The notes below the pieces were generated by a model. That model saw only the letters and a list, made by a program, of their open reading frames with translations. It was not told where the DNA came from and searched no databases. A stretch of DNA of 22,748 nucleotides from a virus. Taxonomy: Duplodnaviria > Heunggongvirae > Uroviricota > Caudoviricetes. Shown here piece after piece: positions 1,307 through 14,782 of the stretch. How positions within the stretch are numbered: position 1 is the first letter of the stretch; each line of letters opens with the position of its first letter. The stretch spans positions 1 to 22,748 of the IMG/VR virus record IMGVR_UViG_2671180674_000012; one strand, written 5' to 3'. Position numbers and translations under genes: made by a program.

Positions 1307-3628
1307 TTAAAAATCAACCTGACTCGGGATCAGTTTTTGCCAGATAGCTGAAACTTGTTTTGCCTGGTGGCGGGCATCATCCAGTGCATTATGGCGTACG
1401 CCTTCGAACGGAATAGCTGTTCTGGCATCGAAGTCTATGGCTTTTCCCAGATCAACGATTGTGCGCACATCGCGATCGTTGCAGTAACGCCACGGGCAGG
1501 GGATACCCTGCCGTTCATATGAACGGCGTAAAATCACGTTGTCGAAGCTGGCTCCATTTCCCCAGACCCGAACAAAAAATTCACCGGAGTTTTCGTCGAT
1601 AAATTCCCGCAATTGCAATAGTGCATCATCTAACGGAATTTGATTTACCAATATTGCAGATCTGGCCTCGCTGGACTGCGCCAGCCACCATTCGATTACG
1701 TCACCATCGGGAGTAGCACCTTTGTCCATTGCGTCAACCAGACTGATGACAACATAAAATATCGGTCCGATTTCCCCGGTCTGCGGATCGAAAAACACTG
1801 CAGCAATAACTACGATGGGCGCATTGCTGTTAATTCCCATCGTTTCAAGGTCGATCATCAGATGGTGCCATACCCTGCTGGTGGATGTGATAATGTGATG
1901 ACTGTTCACCGTAATTAAGGGATCTGCCGCCTCGCCCATCACCGCGCCACAATCAGGGCAGTTGCCGCCACCGCTCTGACCGCAGGCGGTGCAGACTTTT
2001 TCCGGTTCTTGTTGCTCTTCTGGTTCAGGCTGTTTCGTTTCTGGCTCGTTTTGTAACGTATTTGGGCTGTTCTGTTCCGCTTTCTGGTCGTTTTGTTCCG
2101 ATTCGGGCAGGTTCTGGTTCACAGAATCGCGGGTTTCAATCCCCTTAACCCATTTCGGATCATTCGGGTCGCTAATTCCGTCAACGAACTCACCGCGATG
2201 GACTGCCAGTATTTTGTCGGCATCAGGCTGGTTGATATTGGTTGCCTGCATAATTTTGTTTACTTCGTCAGCGGTAACTTTTACCTGTTTAACTGGATCT
2301 ACCTGTTCCTGAGTATCCAGCGATTGCGTGTCCTGGTGATGTTCAGTTGTATCCGGCTCCATTGCTTCGGCCGTTGCCTGTTCATCTGCCATTGCGTCAG
2401 ACGGTTGTGATTTTTCCTCATTATTTTTTTCTTCTTCTGTTTCGCGTTCAGCAGCCAGTTCGCGGTTAACTTCTTCCAGGATATCTTTTTCCGGTGTATG
2501 TCGTGCAGCAGCGAGAGTTTCCTCGGTAGGGTTCTCGTGATCAGTCTCCGTTAAATAGGCGTTGATATACCCCTGAAGGCGTCCCGGGTAATGATAAAAC
2601 TCAGGGTGTGCGCTCCGGATAAGTGCAAAAATAGCGGCGCGGGAATAATCCAGGATACCCGGGATTGCGCGAAGTGCTGCGGACCATTCTTTGAACGGAC
2701 TTTCTTTCTTCTGGACGACTTCTTTTGCGCGACGATAAACGCTGCCCGGAATTTCATAAATATTAAAATCCATCGGAAGTGTGGCCGCTGCAATCTCCAC
2801 ATCCAGCGTATCGAAGGTGTGTACTAAATTCGGATTGCGATCGGTTTTGTTCCCGCCACCGGCATTTGCACCGGAAGCCGTACGGGTGATACGCGAAACA
2901 CGATTTCCTTTCATCCACTCTTTTGTCAGCAGACCGCGATCGGTGTAGTCGGCGTCCAGGTATGCTTCGATAAAAGAAGTTATCAGTCCCAGGTCCGAAT
3001 TTACGGGGGCGGGGAAAACTTTGTCAGTGTCTCGCACCAGTTTGTGGAGATCGCGAATCTCCAGCGGTTCGAGTTGCGCTGCTTTATTTGAGATAGCCAG
3101 CGCGGTAACGGCGGGAAGTTTTTCATCCTGTGCGTTATGTAATGCGCGCAGTTCGTCCCGCGAAACGTGTGTGATCGGTTTTTCGCTGCCGTGCTGTGCC
3201 AGCCATCGAACAGGCAGAATCTGACCTGAAACCGGCAGGAGCATGTTCTCCTCAATCTCAGTCATGTCTTCGCTGTTGACGTTGGTATTGTCAGTGTTGG
3301 CTGGTTTGTCCTGCGCAGAGGGTGAGGGCGCGATAAATACCATTGTGATGCCATCTTCCCCGCCTTTTTCGTAACGGTTACAGAATTCAGTATCAAACAC
3401 GCCTTCAGGTGGAAGGTCATTCACAACGGGTAAATGGACGCGGACGGGTTTTTTAAAGTCGTCTTCATCATAATCGTTGTCATCCATTGCGGTAATGCAG
3501 CGGGAGATGGCAACAGATAATTTTTTTGCTGTAGTCCAGTAAAAACCACCTTTAATTCCAAGGCGTTTTCTGACTTTGTCATTTTTTGCTTCACAATATA
3601 ATGCAAATTCTTCTTTATCAGTGCTCAT
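1307..3628 (-). CDS. Large multi-domain exonuclease: acidic low-complexity linker, CxxC...CxxC zinc ribbon, C-terminal DEDDh-type 3'-5' exonuclease domain
   Basis: 773-aa ORF with GAGGT RBS. C-terminus carries DEDDh motifs (MIDLET, WGNGASFD, HNALDDARH). Middle region has CTACGQSGGGNCPDCG and a long E/Q/P/D-rich segment. Confidence 0.7.
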   Translation of the reverse strand: MSTDKEEFALYCEAKNDKVRKRLGIKGGFYWTTAKKLSVAISRCITAMDDNDYDEDDFKKPVRVHLPVVNDLPPEGVFDTEFCNRYEKGGEDGITMVFIAPSPSAQDKPANTDNTNVNSEDMTEIEENMLLPVSGQILPVRWLAQHGSEKPITHVSRDELRALHNAQDEKLPAVTALAISNKAAQLEPLEIRDLHKLVRDTDKVFPAPVNSDLGLITSFIEAYLDADYTDRGLLTKEWMKGNRVSRITRTASGANAGGGNKTDRNPNLVHTFDTLDVEIAAATLPMDFNIYEIPGSVYRRAKEVVQKKESPFKEWSAALRAIPGILDYSRAAIFALIRSAHPEFYHYPGRLQGYINAYLTETDHENPTEETLAAARHTPEKDILEEVNRELAAERETEEEKNNEEKSQPSDAMADEQATAEAMEPDTTEHHQDTQSLDTQEQVDPVKQVKVTADEVNKIMQATNINQPDADKILAVHRGEFVDGISDPNDPKWVKGIETRDSVNQNLPESEQNDQKAEQNSPNTLQNEPETKQPEPEEQQEPEKVCTACGQSGGGNCPDCGAVMGEAADPLITVNSHHIITSTSRVWHHLMIDLETMGINSNAPIVVIAAVFFDPQTGEIGPIFYVVISLVDAMDKGATPDGDVIEWWLAQSSEARSAILVNQIPLDDALLQLREFIDENSGEFFVRVWGNGASFDNVILRRSYERQGIPCPWRYCNDRDVRTIVDLGKAIDFDARTAIPFEGVRHNALDDARHQAKQVSAIWQKLIPSQVDF

Positions 3629-5323: not shown

Positions 5324-5959
5324 TTACCCTTTAAACCAGTCAATCCAGAGCGGATAGTGTTCAGCATAAATATAGCTATACACATCCAGGTTGTATTTGC
5401 GGTCTGTCCTTAGCAGGTCGCAAATACAGGCCGCAGCTTCCAGGGCAGCAGCTTTGTTGCTGAATAACCATGTAGCAACATTCCGGCGATTATCTGTATC
5501 CCACTCTTTTGTGAGGGCTGACACCACGAAGGAGCCGTTGGTGTTGCCATCAAATACTTCCGTTTCCAGATTTTTAAGTAATGCCTGGTGAATTTTTGCC
5601 AGGTATTCAGTCGGAATTTCGCCACGAATTCGGATAAGTTTGTCATAAACAAACATGTTCCCCGCATATGGCGATTTTTCTTTCTTTTGTTCACTGGCAG
5701 GCTGGTCAATTTCGTCTTCGGTTGGTTTCGTATTGATGTTTTGCACTGTCGTTTCTGCAATTTTCTTTGCCACACTCTCTGAGTCGTGTTTATTTACAGG
5801 CGCACAGGAATACAGTCCGACAAACGCATCTCGCACATTTCGAGCCATATTATCAGTGTCTTTTTTCGTTACCGATTCCAATGCAAGTTCGTTCAGACGT
5901 TGACGTAGTGTGTGTACTGCAATCTCCTGGATTGATAGCGATAAATCTTTAAATTCCAT
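5324..5959 (-). CDS. Hypothetical early-left protein (211 aa)
   Basis: ATG at 5959 with GAGGT RBS, 11 nt downstream of the preceding gene's stop (operon arrangement). No family recognised. Confidence 0.55.
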   Translation of the reverse strand: MEFKDLSLSIQEIAVHTLRQRLNELALESVTKKDTDNMARNVRDAFVGLYSCAPVNKHDSESVAKKIAETTVQNINTKPTEDEIDQPASEQKKEKSPYAGNMFVYDKLIRIRGEIPTEYLAKIHQALLKNLETEVFDGNTNGSFVVSALTKEWDTDNRRNVATWLFSNKAAALEAAACICDLLRTDRKYNLDVYSYIYAEHYPLWIDWFKG

Positions 5960-5970
5960 CGTTAACCTCA

Positions 5971-6123
5971 TCAGTCAGTATTTCTGGCTAACCAGCGACG
6001 CGCGCCAGCTTCGGTTTTAAACGTTTTGCTTTTTGTATACGTCATCGCGGTGAACGTGCCGTCCTGGTTTGGGAACACGCCGTATACCAGAGATTCGTTG
6101 TTGCCAAGATCGATAGTATCCAT
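5971..6123 (-). CDS. Small hypothetical protein (50 aa), first gene of the early-left operon
   Basis: ATG at 6123 with GAGGT RBS, immediately downstream of the pL-like promoter; product MDTIDLGNNESLVYGVFPNQDGTFTAMTYTKSK... Confidence 0.4.
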   Translation of the reverse strand: MDTIDLGNNESLVYGVFPNQDGTFTAMTYTKSKTFKTEAGARRWLARNTD

Positions 6124-6196
6124 GTTGACCTCATATCCCCTTAACGCCGGGGTAGCGGAACTAAGACCTGTCGCACCGTTGTGCTTTGATGACCGA

Positions 6197-6224
6197 ATAA
6201 TACTACTTGAAGTAGACGTGTCAA
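6197..6224 (-). promoter_or_regulatory. pL-like early-left promoter with embedded operator palindrome
   Basis: On the minus strand: TTGACA (6224-6219), 16-nt spacer, TATTAT (6202-6197). The spacer contains the 13-bp palindrome CTACTTGAAGTAG (6203-6215); an additional AAGTAG half-site lies at 6231-6236. Confidence 0.5.
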
Positions 6225-6277
6225 CACTAAAAGTAGAGTGTGTTGTGTTTTTGTCTACATAAAATTGTTTTTTAAGG

Positions 6278-6303
6278 CAAAAAAAACCCGGCAATACCGG
6301 GGG
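6278..6303 (-). terminator. Rho-independent terminator downstream of the repressor gene
   Basis: Stem CCCGG/CCGGG with 5-nt loop; the 9-A run on plus (6278-6286) gives a U-tract after the hairpin on the minus strand. Confidence 0.55.
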
Positions 6304-6319
6304 TTGTTAACAGATAAAG

Positions 6320-6808
6320 TCACTCAGAAGGTGGTGGGGTGCTGGCGTATTTCTCGTAGAAATCGTAAAGTTTCTTGAGTCTCATCTCAAAAGCCAGAAG
6401 CATATTCCTGGCTTCAACTGGCGGAAACTCCCGAAACGTTCGTATCAGTCGCTTTTCATCTTCACTTAACTCAGTAAATTCGCCATTGCTATTGGCACCA
6501 GATCTTTGTGTTACAAATGAATCTTCTGCTGGTTCAATTCCTTTCTCTGTTAGCTGACCGTATTCCAGCCATGCAGGTTCAACTCCCAGAAATTCTGCTA
6601 TTCGTTCGAGTTTTTCGTCGCGGGGTTTAGCTGTACCTAGGGTGTAGCGCCGCGCCATTTCGTATGTGACGCCCGTAGATAAGCTTAAGTCTTTGATGGA
6701 TTTGTTTTTTCTATCCATTTCTGACTTAAGTCTTGTTGCGAATGCGTGATGTTTATGTGCGTTTTCTACCATATGTAGAAGATTAAAGCAGTTGCCTTGA
6801 TTCGTCAT
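6320..6808 (-). CDS. CI-like phage repressor, XRE-family HTH, no S24 peptidase domain
   Basis: HTH signature HAFATRLKSEMDRKNKSIKDLSLSTGVTYEMARRYTLG; divergent from the cro-like gene across an operator-rich gap. Start is ambiguous (ATG 6808 or 6772, or TTG 6829) and there is no SD, so possibly leaderless. Confidence 0.75.
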   Translation of the reverse strand: MTNQGNCFNLLHMVENAHKHHAFATRLKSEMDRKNKSIKDLSLSTGVTYEMARRYTLGTAKPRDEKLERIAEFLGVEPAWLEYGQLTEKGIEPAEDSFVTQRSGANSNGEFTELSEDEKRLIRTFREFPPVEARNMLLAFEMRLKKLYDFYEKYASTPPPSE

Positions 6809-6878
6809 TTCTATTTTGTGTAGTTGCAAATTCTACTTTATGTAGTATTATTCTCTCGTTCTTGAAATGGAGCTGACG
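6809..6878 (+). promoter_or_regulatory. Divergent immunity control region: pR-like promoter with operator
   Basis: TTGCAA (6824-6829), 16-nt spacer, TATTAT (6846-6851), with the imperfect palindrome CTACTTTATGTAG (6834-6846) in the spacer; same half-sites as the pL operator. Confidence 0.5.
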
Positions 6879-7163
6879 ATGAGCACTACATACAAAAACA
6901 TTACAGAAAAGGCAGTTATGGTTATTGGTTCTCCCTCTGCTGTAAGTCGCATGTTTGGTTTCAAATCGCCTCAATCCATTTTTAATTGGATTATCAGGAA
7001 CAGGGTTCCTAGTGAGAGGGTTATTAGGCTTTGTGAGCTTGGGGAATGGATTGTTACTCCGCATGATCTCCGGCCTGATTTACACCCTACTCCAGTTAGT
7101 GGGATTCCAGAAGAAGTTATCAGATCCAAAAAAATAGGGTTGATTCATGAAAATCAAGCATGA
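6879..7163 (+). CDS. Cro-like / YdaS-family HTH protein
   Basis: ATG 6879 with GGAG RBS. Motif SIFNWIIRNRVPSERVIRLCELGEWIVTPHDLRPD resembles YdaS-type Cro proteins (GxxQxVxQWxxxxRVPxER...ELRPD). Confidence 0.6.
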   Translation: MSTTYKNITEKAVMVIGSPSAVSRMFGFKSPQSIFNWIIRNRVPSERVIRLCELGEWIVTPHDLRPDLHPTPVSGIPEEVIRSKKIGLIHENQA

Positions 7164-7572
7164 ACACATCCGTATGGCGATGAATGCCTGGGCGCATCCG
7201 GACGGTGAAAAAGTTCCGGCAGCTGAAATAACCCAGGCTTATTTTGAGTTGGGGCTGACGTTTCCTGAACTGTACGACGACAGCCATCCGGAAGCCCTGG
7301 GCCGTAACACCCAGAAAATTTTCCGCTGGGTGAAGAAAGACACTCCTGATGCGGTTAAAAAAATTCAGGCGTTGTTACCAGCGATCGAAAAAGCAATGCC
7401 GCCTCCGCTGGTGGCCCGAATGCGCAGCCACAGTTCCGCTTATTTTCGGGAGTTGGTAGAGACGAAGGAACGGCTGGTGAAAGATATTGATGATTTCGTT
7501 GCATCAGCGATCGTTCTGTTCGATCAGATGAATCGTGGTGGCCCGGCAGGAAACACTCTGGCTGTGCATTAA
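7147..7572 (+). CDS. YdaT-like protein (CII-position regulator of Rac-type prophages)
   Basis: Begins MKIKHEHI, which I recall as the YdaT N-terminus; overlaps the cro-like gene's end; Rac-like order racR-ydaS-ydaT. Confidence 0.5.
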   Translation: MKIKHEHIRMAMNAWAHPDGEKVPAAEITQAYFELGLTFPELYDDSHPEALGRNTQKIFRWVKKDTPDAVKKIQALLPAIEKAMPPPLVARMRSHSSAYFRELVETKERLVKDIDDFVASAIVLFDQMNRGGPAGNTLAVH

Positions 7573-7585
7573 TTGGGTAATAAAT

Positions 7586-8095
7586 ATGAGTAATGACAAA
7601 AAATTGACACTGAGCGTTTACGAAAACAGTCCGCACATCTGGCGTGGCGGTTTATCTGATGTGGAGCTGGCAGAGTGGTTGATACATAAAGCTAATGCGC
7701 TGCTCTGGCGTTTGTCAGCCAGAGAGCAGCGCAAGGAAACCAGAATAAAGCTGGCTGATGCAGAAGCGTGTGCCGGGCTTATTGAGGATTATACAAATCT
7801 TGGTATTTCTTCAGCAGAGAGTGATCCCATTCAGCCTCTGAGCAGGGAGTCAATCCAGCACGCTGGTTGTATGGCACATCTTGTAACTGCTCGTCAACAT
7901 GAGGTGGGTATTGGATCACTTTCGGTGGGATATTCGCTGATTCCAGAGCTGGTTGAAGCAAGAAAATCAGTTCAGAAAAAGAGAGATGACGCACTTCAAT
8001 TATTGAGAGAGCACTATGGCGCGATACCAGAATGCGAACAGCGTCGATACCCTGAAGGTTATGAATGGATGCAGTCTCTTTTTGAAGTTCGCTAA
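7586..8095 (+). CDS. Hypothetical phage early protein (169 aa)
   Basis: ATG 13 nt after the upstream stop; an alternative GTG at 7535 would overlap the upstream gene. No family recognised. Confidence 0.5.
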   Translation: MSNDKKLTLSVYENSPHIWRGGLSDVELAEWLIHKANALLWRLSAREQRKETRIKLADAEACAGLIEDYTNLGISSAESDPIQPLSRESIQHAGCMAHLVTARQHEVGIGSLSVGYSLIPELVEARKSVQKKRDDALQLLREHYGAIPECEQRRYPEGYEWMQSLFEVR

Positions 8096-13868: not shown

Positions 13869-14206
13869 GAAGGAAACAAACAGAAACAACAATTGCCGTT
13901 ATCTGTTGCCACCAATGACAAGTAAACGTATCTCAGGCGAGCGCATTGCGCCGTTCTGACGCGGATACATTAGCCTGGGCAGAAGGTTCTGGCAATAAAA
14001 AATAGCGTTTTCTTATCGGTGTCGGTAAGATTGTTGCGGGTGCTTGAGGCTGTCTGCCTCGGGCATGCCACTGTAAGGCAGACAGAGAAAAGCCCCAGTT
14101 AACATCACGCGTCCTGCAAGACGCTTAACATTAATCTGAGGCTCAATCCATGCTGAACACATGTAGGTTAGCCTCTTACGTGCCGAAAGGCAAGGAGAAG
14201 CAGGCT

Positions 14207-14362
14207 ATGAAGCAGCAAAAGGCGATGTTAATCGCCCTGATCGTCATCTGTTTAACCGTCATAGTGACGGCACTGGTAACGAGGAAAGACCTCTGCGAGG
14301 TACGAATCCGAACCGGCCAGACGGAGGTCGCTGTCTTCACAGCTTACGAATCTGAGGAGTAA
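14207..14362 (+). CDS. hok: Hok/Gef-family type I toxin (HokD/RelF-like membrane peptide)
   Basis: Product MKQQKAMLIALIVICLTVIVTALVTRKDLCEVRIRTGQTEVAVFTAYESEE is near-identical to Hok/Gef peptides as I recall them; AAGGAG RBS; structured leader and own terminator. Confidence 0.8.
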   Translation: MKQQKAMLIALIVICLTVIVTALVTRKDLCEVRIRTGQTEVAVFTAYESEE

Positions 14363-14432
14363 GAGACCTGGCGGGGGAGAAATCCCTCGCCACCTCTGAT
14401 GTGTCAGGCATCCTCAACGCACCCGCACTTAA

Positions 14433-14452
14433 CCCGCTTCGGCGGGTTTTTT
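14433..14452 (+). terminator. Rho-independent terminator after hok
   Basis: CCCGC-TTCG-GCGGG followed by TTTTTT. Confidence 0.55.
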
Positions 14453-14587: not shown

Positions 14588-14782
14588 GTGTTTAAAGTTC
14601 ACGGGATTTTGGTTATGAACGATAAGGAATTAATTGCTGCGCTTTCTATACCAGGTAATTATGAAGTAATAGTTCTTGAGAATGGTGAGTTTATCGTAAT
14701 GCCATTGCCATCCGATGTTATTCTGATCACCAAAGAATCACATGCGGATTCGGTCAGTCACTTCAGCATTAAGAAAGACTAG
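14588..14782 (+). CDS. Small hypothetical protein; start uncertain (GTG 14588 or ATG 14615)
   Basis: ORF of 64 codons; the SD-like AGGGGAGG lies at a poor distance from either candidate start. Confidence 0.3.
   Translation: MFKVHGILVMNDKELIAALSIPGNYEVIVLENGEFIVMPLPSDVILITKESHADSVSHFSIKKD

Follow-up and report, generated by a model that had tools for sequence, protein, structure and literature searches.

A probable lambdoid lysis-lysogeny switch with a short, non-cleavable DicA-type repressor and two operator triplets

The DNA analyzed here is positions 1 to 22,748 of the IMG/VR virus record IMGVR_UViG_2671180674_000012 (Caudoviricetes), and this whole stretch is called the window. The immunity region at 6197-6878 of the window is very probably the lysis-lysogeny switch of a lambdoid prophage with a backbone of the Qin/Rac/CP-933P type, in which a short non-cleavable repressor acts on two triplets of operators. 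An earlier reading made from the letters without database searches (the sequence-only reading) had described an immunity region with mirrored promoters and a repressor lacking an autocleavage domain. According to our analysis, the gene of a DicA-type repressor lies between mirrored promoters of the early-left (PL) and early-right (PR) kinds, and the genes of the Cro-like protein YdaS and the CII-like protein YdaT follow on the right. The sequence-only reading is essentially right, and the system is ordinary for the class of DicA/Gifsy/PaaR2-type switches. Sequences, conservation, domain content and homologies were computed here; binding, cooperativity, activation from OR2, leaderless translation and the route of induction are what we infer.

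The operator motif is the 13-bp palindrome CTAC-N5-GTAG. Three sites are present on each side of the repressor gene, as found by a mismatch search and a separate motif scan, and they are named OL1-OL3 (left operators) and OR1-OR3 (right operators; Table 1). The exact motif CTAC-N5-GTAG has three matches in the 22,748-bp window, and 3/3 fall within 6190-6860, which is 3% of it (binomial P = 2.6e-5). Windows simulated with a Markov model contain a mean of 0.08 exact matches per window. The sequence-only reading placed one 13-bp palindrome in the spacer of each promoter. Both palindromes are present, and the rightward one (OR1) is imperfect, with the half-sites CTACTT and CTACAT. The number of operators given there was too low, however, as one site on each side was seen and three on each side exist; OL2, OL3, OR2 and OR3 were overlooked. 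The centre-to-centre spacings are 21 and 31 bp in OL, and 22 and 45 bp in OR. A literature search with the operator strings, which covered open-access text only, gave nothing relevant. The operator specificity is apparently new within an already described class of switches, and the system is not of a new kind.

About 60 clusters of full-length relatives of the repressor were found in Enterobacteriaceae. For comparison, ten diverged loci were used, from E. coli (three lineages), Citrobacter, Buttiauxella, strain G50, Entomohabitans, Phlomobacter, Cronobacter and Salmonella, and their repressors are 44-82% identical to that of the window. In all these loci, the repressor gene has a conserved ATG, and OR1, OR2 and OR3 precede it by 73, 51 and 6 nt, respectively. 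The left operators are kept in the same manner. A site equivalent to OL1 is present in the PL spacer of every related locus, OL2 lies over the -35 hexamer with its block TCTACTTTnnGTnTTGAC retained, and OL3 is found about 30 bp further, where Citrobacter, Buttiauxella and strain G50 have a near-perfect palindrome. In the alignment of the 11 loci, the conserved blocks on the right are exactly ATAATACTAC..AAAGTAG, CAACTAC..AAAATAGAAATGAC and TTAATCTTCTAC..ATGGTAGA, and the DNA between them is variable. OR2 deviates from the motif with ATAG in place of GTAG, and this deviation is identical in every related locus. OR2 thus appears to be a conserved weaker site, which is consistent with cooperative filling from OR1. 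An OR of several operators that overlaps both PR and the promoter of the repressor (PRM), located between divergent repressor and Cro genes, is the arrangement expected of a lambdoid switch, as is the second set of operators over the early-left promoter, which is kept in the related loci. The region is a fully parsable example of a lambdoid switch whose repressor is not cleaved in the SOS response, and its map of three plus three operators is backed by phylogenetic footprinting across genera.

The two promoters are as the sequence-only reading gave them, TTGACA-16-TATTAT on the left and TTGCAA-16-TATTAT on the right. In a consensus scan, the PL-like promoter matches 11 of the 12 sigma-70 consensus positions and the PR-like promoter 9 of the 12. 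The two are mirror images and form the arms of a 31-nt inverted repeat with 81% complementarity (6195-6225 against 6823-6853). The promoter scan is not significant by itself in this region, since three sites were found and 2.1 were expected. The weight of the argument lies on the repeats and the conservation. The architecture of PL and the leader downstream of it are kept in K-12 Qin and the ten related loci. By position and by sequence, leader included, the PL-like promoter is the homologue of Qin dicBp.

The PL leader itself deserves a remark. It is about 60 nt long (6127-6190 of the minus strand), and the pattern CATCAAAGCACA..GGTGCGACAGG..GTTCCGC.ACCCCGGCGTTAAGGGG is kept from K-12 Qin to Cronobacter and Salmonella (loci L046, at 2440-2500, and L042, L044 and L004-L007). 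A structured RNA was considered for the leader and rejected, as its single-sequence fold is no better than those of shuffled sequences (z = +1.4), and RNAalifold gave seven pairs with no compensatory change.

The repressor sequence gives only the Pfam families HTH_3 (E = 2e-8) and HTH_26, both of the helix-turn-helix (HTH) type, and PF00717 is not found. The sequence contains zero Ala-Gly or Cys-Gly dipeptides. Relatives that carry an S24 peptidase domain align with the repressor at 55% identity over residues 1-85 and not past them; the alignment with the S24 relative P0072 ends at residue 85. An AlphaFold (AF2) model was calculated from a 50-sequence alignment, with a mean predicted local distance difference test (pLDDT) score of 76. 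In the all-helical model, a five-helix HTH domain (4-71) and a confident three-helix domain (104-143) are joined by a linker with pLDDT below 50 (74-95). By Foldseek, the N-terminal domain of this predicted model superposes on 434 Cro (1.4 Å) and on the N-terminal domain of P22 c2 (0.8 Å). The fold search with the whole model matched the HTH only and is uninformative for the small C-terminal domain, and a PDB search with the repressor sequence gave only noise and weak HTH matches. The similarity to DicA covers both domains in hhalign (95.3% probability, E = 2.3e-8, 105 columns) and is also detected by BLASTP (E = 2e-5). With its N-terminal Cro/C1-type HTH and a length within about 130-160 residues, the repressor belongs to the short class. 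According to the alignments and the model, what follows the linker is a small helical domain of the DicA type and not an S24 peptidase.

The absence of an autocleavage domain, as claimed in the sequence-only reading, is thereby borne out. Because the C-terminal part is a DicA-type helical domain, RecA cannot trigger self-cleavage, and this route is ruled out with high confidence. It is extremely improbable that the repressor is RecA-cleavable through a cryptic or divergent cleavage module. Such a module could be imagined from the 55% identity of the HTH to those of genuine S24 repressors, but only about 65 residues follow the HTH, predicted to form the disordered linker and three helices. The lack of PF00717 and of AG or CG dipeptides, together with the end of S24 homology at residue 85, also speaks against it, and the homologous DicA and Gifsy repressors are uncleaved.

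The C-terminal domain is portable: copies up to 68% identical are found on repressors with unrelated HTHs in Klebsiella phage Kp4882-1 and E. coli prophages, and more distant copies in mEp237, SEN34 and others. No record with the full-length repressor was found by tblastn in the phage collection. The recognition region VTYEMARRYTLGTAKPR together with the tripartite OR layout is also present upstream of S24-bearing repressors of 232-240 residues, in Pantoea, Mixta, Rouxiella, Haemophilus, Aggregatibacter and Acinetobacter (loci L009-L036). The operator motif thus goes along with this HTH domain, also where the repressor carries S24. Of the computational evidence at hand, this joint conservation of HTH and motif speaks most strongly for recognition of the sites by the repressor. 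Judged from the sequences, the pairing of DNA-binding module and operators is ancient and widely distributed, and the C-terminal domain has been exchanged. A conserved DNA-binding module with alternative C-terminal domains offers a natural system for asking how the induction input is rewired while immunity stays the same.

The cassette of repressor and operators found in the window is rare, being present in 8 of 5,426 complete E. coli genomes. Its flanks, the DUF1391 gene and ydaT, are up to 95-99% identical in prophages with quite different repressor/Cro cassettes (5900-7600 compared with L049, L050 and L051). These near-identical flanks around differing cassettes suggest that the immunity core is exchanged as a cassette within a common backbone. 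In sequence, the right arm is CP-933P-like (YdaT and its operator), the left arm is Qin-like, and the repressor-operator cassette is unlike both.

The mRNA of the repressor is likely leaderless, as the sequence-only reading proposed, with a transcription start that is predicted. The Met residue of the sequence MVE is invariant among the homologues, several of which are annotated from that residue. Its ATG lies at the dyad of OR3 with no Shine-Dalgarno sequence upstream, and the -10 hexamer of the predicted PRM is 7 nt away. In the alignment of the 11 loci, conserved -35 and -10 blocks flank the variable spacer of PRM. In the RefSeq/PGAP models of the family, the coding sequence starts 12 codons earlier, at the position equivalent to 6808 of the window (also in L001, 6404-6892). 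This upstream ATG is ruled out as the true start by Cronobacter and Salmonella, where a stop codon is present in frame upstream of the conserved ATG while the surrounding DNA blocks stay conserved. The "MT" codons of the longer frame are the conserved ATGAC of the -35-like hexamer at 6808-6803. Since the 12-codon stretch holds the predicted PRM and the in-frame stops of Cronobacter and Salmonella, the RefSeq N-terminus is probably wrong; the start for the family would be 12 codons too early, and a promoter is hidden within the annotated coding sequence. In the Haemophilus relatives, an ordinary Shine-Dalgarno sequence and a later ATG come after the same -10 and OR3, an arrangement that would fit a transcription start within OR3 in every lineage. 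This comparative evidence, the published leaderless cI and paaR2 mRNAs, and the gfhR promoter located between two AUGs make a leaderless PRM transcript the preferred reading.

At the other end of the gene, the repressor has its own terminator, also as noted before. A hairpin followed by a T-run is present at this position in every related locus, and the stem sequences differ. By its location, the terminator ends the repressor transcript ahead of OL3 and PL.

From these features, the following working of the switch is proposed. The repressor would bind the 13-bp operators through its 434/P22-type HTH. On OR1 and OR2, which are two helical turns apart, it would occlude PR, and ydaS, ydaT and the replication genes would be off. 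From OR2, it probably activates its own weak PRM, since OR2 sits 2 bp from the PRM -35. At high levels of the repressor, OR3 would be filled and PRM shut, and such negative autoregulation is suggested because OR3 is centred on the start codon and the predicted transcription start. On the left, OL1 and OL2 would occlude the strong PL of the ydfA-dicB-exo-xis-int operon. As OL and OR are only about 630 bp apart, the C-terminal domain could mediate looping between them. The Cro analogue YdaS presumably competes for the same operators, and YdaT bound at 7140-7157 probably drives transcription of the repressor gene in the establishment phase. We infer these regulatory steps from the geometry of the sites and from analogy with lambda, PaaR2 and RacR.

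The Pfam names YdaS_toxin and YdaT_toxin, and two papers of 2017 that present racR as the repressor of toxic ydaS and ydaT, would lead to a different view, in which the module is a toxin-repressor pair or an atypical toxin-antitoxin system instead of a phage switch. This is very unlikely here. The genetic context is a full lambdoid early region, YdaS acts as Cro, and YdaT is a DNA-binding equivalent of CII with a defined operator that is present in the window. In addition, a PL with its own operator triplet governs genes of recombination, excision and integration. The "toxin" names are therefore misleading in the present case, and the lysis-lysogeny switch is preferred.

Several systems resemble this switch. 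In the case of DicA-DicC-dicBp of Qin, the order of the genes is the same: ydfA/DUF1391 ... dicB and ydfD lie leftward of the repressor gene, and a Cro-like gene lies rightward. DicA is also short and is composed of an HTH, a linker and a helical C-terminal domain with the pattern LSxxExxL..F..LP..E; it has no Ala-Gly (PMC10448788). Qin also has an operator in the spacer of the leftward promoter, a conserved leader to ydfA and a hok-X-ydfU slot. However, the repressor of the window is only about 18-20% identical to DicA, far under the cut-off of the NCBIfam DicA model. The Qin operators, as read from its sequence, are TTAGT/ACTAA-type repeats in contrast to CTAC-N5-GTAG, the Cro analogue of the window is of the YdaS type and not DicC, and a YdaT/CII gene is present. 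Neither a Rem homologue (tblastn) nor dicF (Rfam) is found in the window.

CP-933P of E. coli O157:H7 (PaaR2-YdaS-YdaT) shares with the window a YdaS-type Cro, a non-cleavable repressor, leaderless repressor mRNA (predicted in the window), OR1-3 and OL1-3, and mirrored PR and PL. PaaR2 is described as leaderless, with OR1-3 and OL1-3 and without S24 (PMC8630535). Its YdaT is about 90% identical to that of the window, as read off the alignment, and the operator TTGATT-N6-AATCAA, defined by footprinting in CP-933P (PMC9986795), is intact; its sole zero-mismatch match in the window is at 7140-7157. On the other hand, the gene order differs, as a terminator and PL follow the repressor of the window in place of the paaA2-parE2 toxin-antitoxin genes. 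The published PaaR2 operator consensus (GTTTAGTAA repeats) is unrelated to that of the window, and the two repressors are likened by description and not by sequence. Since YdaT and its operator are CP-933P-like while the repressor, Cro and operators differ from those of CP-933P, the immunity region is a mosaic.

The Salmonella prophages Gifsy-1/2/3 encode GfoR, GtgR/GftR and GfhR, which are short uncleaved lambdoid repressors of the DicA superfamily (PMC3121763). The GfhR promoter is located between two in-frame AUGs (PMC3121763), and the window has the same arrangement with the ATGs at 6808 and 6772. In contrast, tblastn with the repressor (E limit 1e-5) against the phage collection, in which the presence of Gifsy is unconfirmed, gave no record named Gifsy. 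The LexA-box scan also shows that the window is without the dinI-LexA box-antirepressor cassette downstream of the replication genes.

Lambda cI-cro has the same tripartite OR and OL, with OR1 and OR2 over PR, OR2 beside the PRM -35 and OR3 over PRM. Its repressor mRNA is leaderless (predicted in the window), the repressor transcript ends before PL, and the Cro and CII functions are encoded rightward. The window differs from lambda in lacking an S24/RecA-cleavable domain and in having 13-bp instead of 17-bp operators. The distance between OL and OR is 2.4 kb in lambda, no recognisable N gene is present in the window, and the unrelated YdaT fold replaces CII. RacR-YdaS-YdaT of K-12 Rac has the same organisation with three inverted-repeat operators, and its O3 covers the ATG of racR (PMC9638921). 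YdaS and YdaT are 39% and 33% identical to the K-12 proteins, respectively, whereas RacR has no detectable homology to the repressor of the window (BLASTP E = 0.37; hhalign probability 0.3%) and its operator is TAGGC-n3-GCCTA. Among our results, the widely kept HTH-operator module with its alternative C-terminal domains, the probable mis-annotation of the start codon and the conserved PL leader without a stable fold or covariation are mildly interesting, and none of the findings overturns current understanding.

Some observations weigh against the proposed switch or its parts. The NCBIfam DicA model NF007257 scores 28.6 bits against a cut-off of 101 bits, which makes the repressor a remote DicA-type member and not a DicA orthologue. 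The PRM hexamers are weak and were missed by the promoter scan. The frame upstream of the repressor ATG is open in most loci, and a longer minor isoform of the repressor, like GfhR* of Gifsy-3, is possible. The window ends shortly after Q. As to induction, the LexA box CTGT-N8-ACAG (up to one mismatch) has five matches in the window against 6.6 expected, none of them near a small open reading frame (ORF). None of the antirepressor domains Ant, Rha, KilA-N, Bro-N and ORF6N was found by Pfam, PHROG and NCBIfam in the approximately 45 ORFs of the window, and tblastn with Rem, DicA and DicC against the window gave nothing significant, so that no Rem homologue was found.

The sequence-only reading implied an antirepressor or other route of induction. 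This agrees with the published homologous class, but no recognisable antirepressor or LexA box is present in the 22.7-kb window; thus, the route in this prophage can be proposed only. Derepression would occur through a protein that removes the repressor from the DNA (an antirepressor, as in the case of Rem and GfoA/GftA), or through stochastic flipping driven by Cro. In Qin, the small protein Rem relieves DicA, and flips occur spontaneously and in response to stress as well; dicBp switching is spontaneous, independent of RecA and Rem, and urea and heat induce it (PMC10448788). The Gifsy repressors are stripped from the DNA by antirepressors under LexA control, whose genes lie about 1.3 kb downstream of those for replication, and these antirepressors act in trans across prophages (PMC3121763). 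PaaR2/CP-933P is bistable and shows no response to mitomycin C (PMC8630535).

Following the model of Gifsy, 186 and N15, a small antirepressor may be encoded outside the window, in the late region or in another prophage, and may be controlled by LexA. We regard this as possible, though somewhat less likely than not. The mechanism is established for repressors of the DicA/Gifsy type, the action of the Gifsy antirepressors in trans would allow a distant gene, and the window is without a candidate having known domains. However, no specific gene is indicated by the data, and no LexA box was found in 22.7 kb, although the Gifsy box is only 1.3 kb downstream of the replication genes.

It is also conceivable, though rather unlikely, that no dedicated inducer exists. 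The bistable switch would then flip by chance or when the cell is generally stressed, with the Cro-like protein or repressor proteolysis as the means, which is how DicA/DicC and PaaR2/YdaS of cryptic prophages are reported to behave. The spontaneous, RecA- and Rem-independent switching of dicBp and the bistability of CP-933P are consistent with such behaviour, and the searches of the window yielded no inducer gene. The intact-looking int, xis, exo, replication and Q genes, on the contrary, fit a phage that still needs efficient induction.

Within the window, the search for an antirepressor gave no protein with a known domain and one weak candidate, the 55-aa ORF at 14615-14782. That this ORF encodes the cognate antirepressor, targeting the C-terminal domain of the repressor, is doubtful. 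It lies between hok and ydfU/DUF968, exactly at the position of rem in Qin, and belongs to a genuine phage family (phrog_34610, E = 4e-38). A homologue is present in the same slot in Cronobacter (L042, 2236-2415), beside a repressor of 52% identity (hhalign 86%, E = 5e-6), and the N-terminal motif MN..EL...(P/D)G.Y.V.V.NG is common to the ORF and Rem. The similarity to Rem is not significant, however (hhalign probability 5-8%; tblastn E = 3). Among complete E. coli genomes, 80 have the ORF, which travels either with the repressor of the window (5 genomes) or with a repressor of other HTH and the same C-terminal subtype (82 genomes), and the accession lists overlap; clonal O157 genomes dominate this co-occurrence, and a shared backbone could explain the linkage. 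None of the 50,697 phage records contains the ORF, not even Kp4882-1, the phage with the repressor closest in its C-terminal domain, and no LexA box or evident regulated promoter is present upstream of it.

A broader proposal combines this candidate with the shared module. The VTYEMARRYTLGTAKPR HTH and the CTAC-N5-GTAG layout of OR would be common to gamma- and beta-proteobacterial prophages and be fused either to S24 or to the DicA-type helical domain, and with the helical version the 55-aa protein would represent a new antirepressor family that recognises the C-terminal domain and not the DNA-binding domain. We consider this proposal as a whole unlikely. If it is true, phages with the same module and operators, and possibly the same immunity, respond to different induction signals.

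The coordinates of the features are summarized in Table 1. By sequence similarity, the genes around the switch form a lambdoid early region of the kind seen in the Qin, Rac and CP-933P prophages. Rightward of ydaT, DnaD-like and DnaC-like replication genes, a hok/sok module, RusA and Q are found. Leftward, the genes encode DUF1391/YdfA, DicB, DUF1482/YdfD, a RecE-like exonuclease, Xis and Int.

Table 1. Features of the immunity region and of related genes in the window
Feature	Position	Strand	Description
DUF1391 gene (YdfA/YdaF-like)	5971-6126	-	First gene of the PL operon; conserved leader 6127-6190 ahead of the gene
PL-like early-left promoter	6197-6224	-	-35 TTGACA 6224-6219; 16-nt spacer; -10 TATTAT 6202-6197
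OL1	6203-6215		CTACTTGAAGTAG; perfect 6+1+6 palindrome; occupies the PL spacer and adjoins the -10
OL2	6224-6236		CTACTTTTAGTGT on the minus strand; single good half-site; overlaps the PL -35; 21 bp centre-to-centre from OL1
OL3	6255-6267		CTACATAAAATTG; 31 bp from OL2; between the terminator and PL
Intrinsic terminator of the repressor transcript	6279-6301	-	Hairpin 6301-6287 (CCCGGTATTGCCGGG), then T8; 19 nt past the stop codon
Repressor gene	6320-6772	-	150 aa; HTH 4-71, disordered linker 74-95, three-helix C-terminal domain 104-143
OR3	6766-6778		CTACATATGGTAG on the minus strand; dyad centre is the A of the repressor ATG
PRM (predicted, weak)	6780-6808	-	-35 ATGACG 6808-6803; 17-nt variable spacer; -10 TAATCT 6785-6780
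OR2	6811-6823		CTACACAAAATAG on the minus strand; adjoins the PR -35; 2 bp from the PRM -35; 22 bp from OR1
PR-like early-right promoter	6824-6851	+	-35 TTGCAA 6824-6829; 16-nt spacer; -10 TATTAT 6846-6851
OR1	6833-6845		CTACTTTATGTAG; in the PR spacer, adjoins the -10
Cro analogue gene, YdaS family	6879-7163	+	94 aa; GGAG 6 nt 5' of the ATG
YdaT operator	7140-7157		TTGATTcatgaaAATCAA; spans the end of ydaS and the start of ydaT with its ATG
CII analogue gene, ydaT	7147-7572	+	141 aa; YdaT_toxin 38.9 bits (cut-off 21); phrog_163, CII-like
55-aa ORF, weak candidate antirepressor	14615-14782	+	phrog_34610; between hok and the ydfU/DUF968-like gene, the rem slot of Qin

The YdaS protein matches the Pfam family YdaS_toxin with 30.4 bits against a cut-off of 30, belongs to phrog_35, and is similar to the Cro structure 3bd1 of the PDB (E = 9e-6). 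YdaT is closely related to the crystallised CP-933P YdaT 8bt1 (E = 2.5e-80) and to 3c4r (E = 2.7e-82).

A 215-aa ORF at 5324-5971 was considered as Rha and rejected, as it is unrelated to the Rha protein found at the same place in relatives. The Rfam scan of the window detected sok only. This sok RNA (RF01794, 114 bits) is located at 14038-14212 and is part of a hok/sok type I toxin-antitoxin module, with the Hok ORF within 14150-14362 and then a terminator-like hairpin near 14420-14450. The early-left exonuclease is a protein of 773 residues (1307-3628, minus strand), in which an Exonuc_VIII (RecE-like) region is combined with a C-terminal Rv2179c-like 3'-5' exoribonuclease domain (E = 1e-65).

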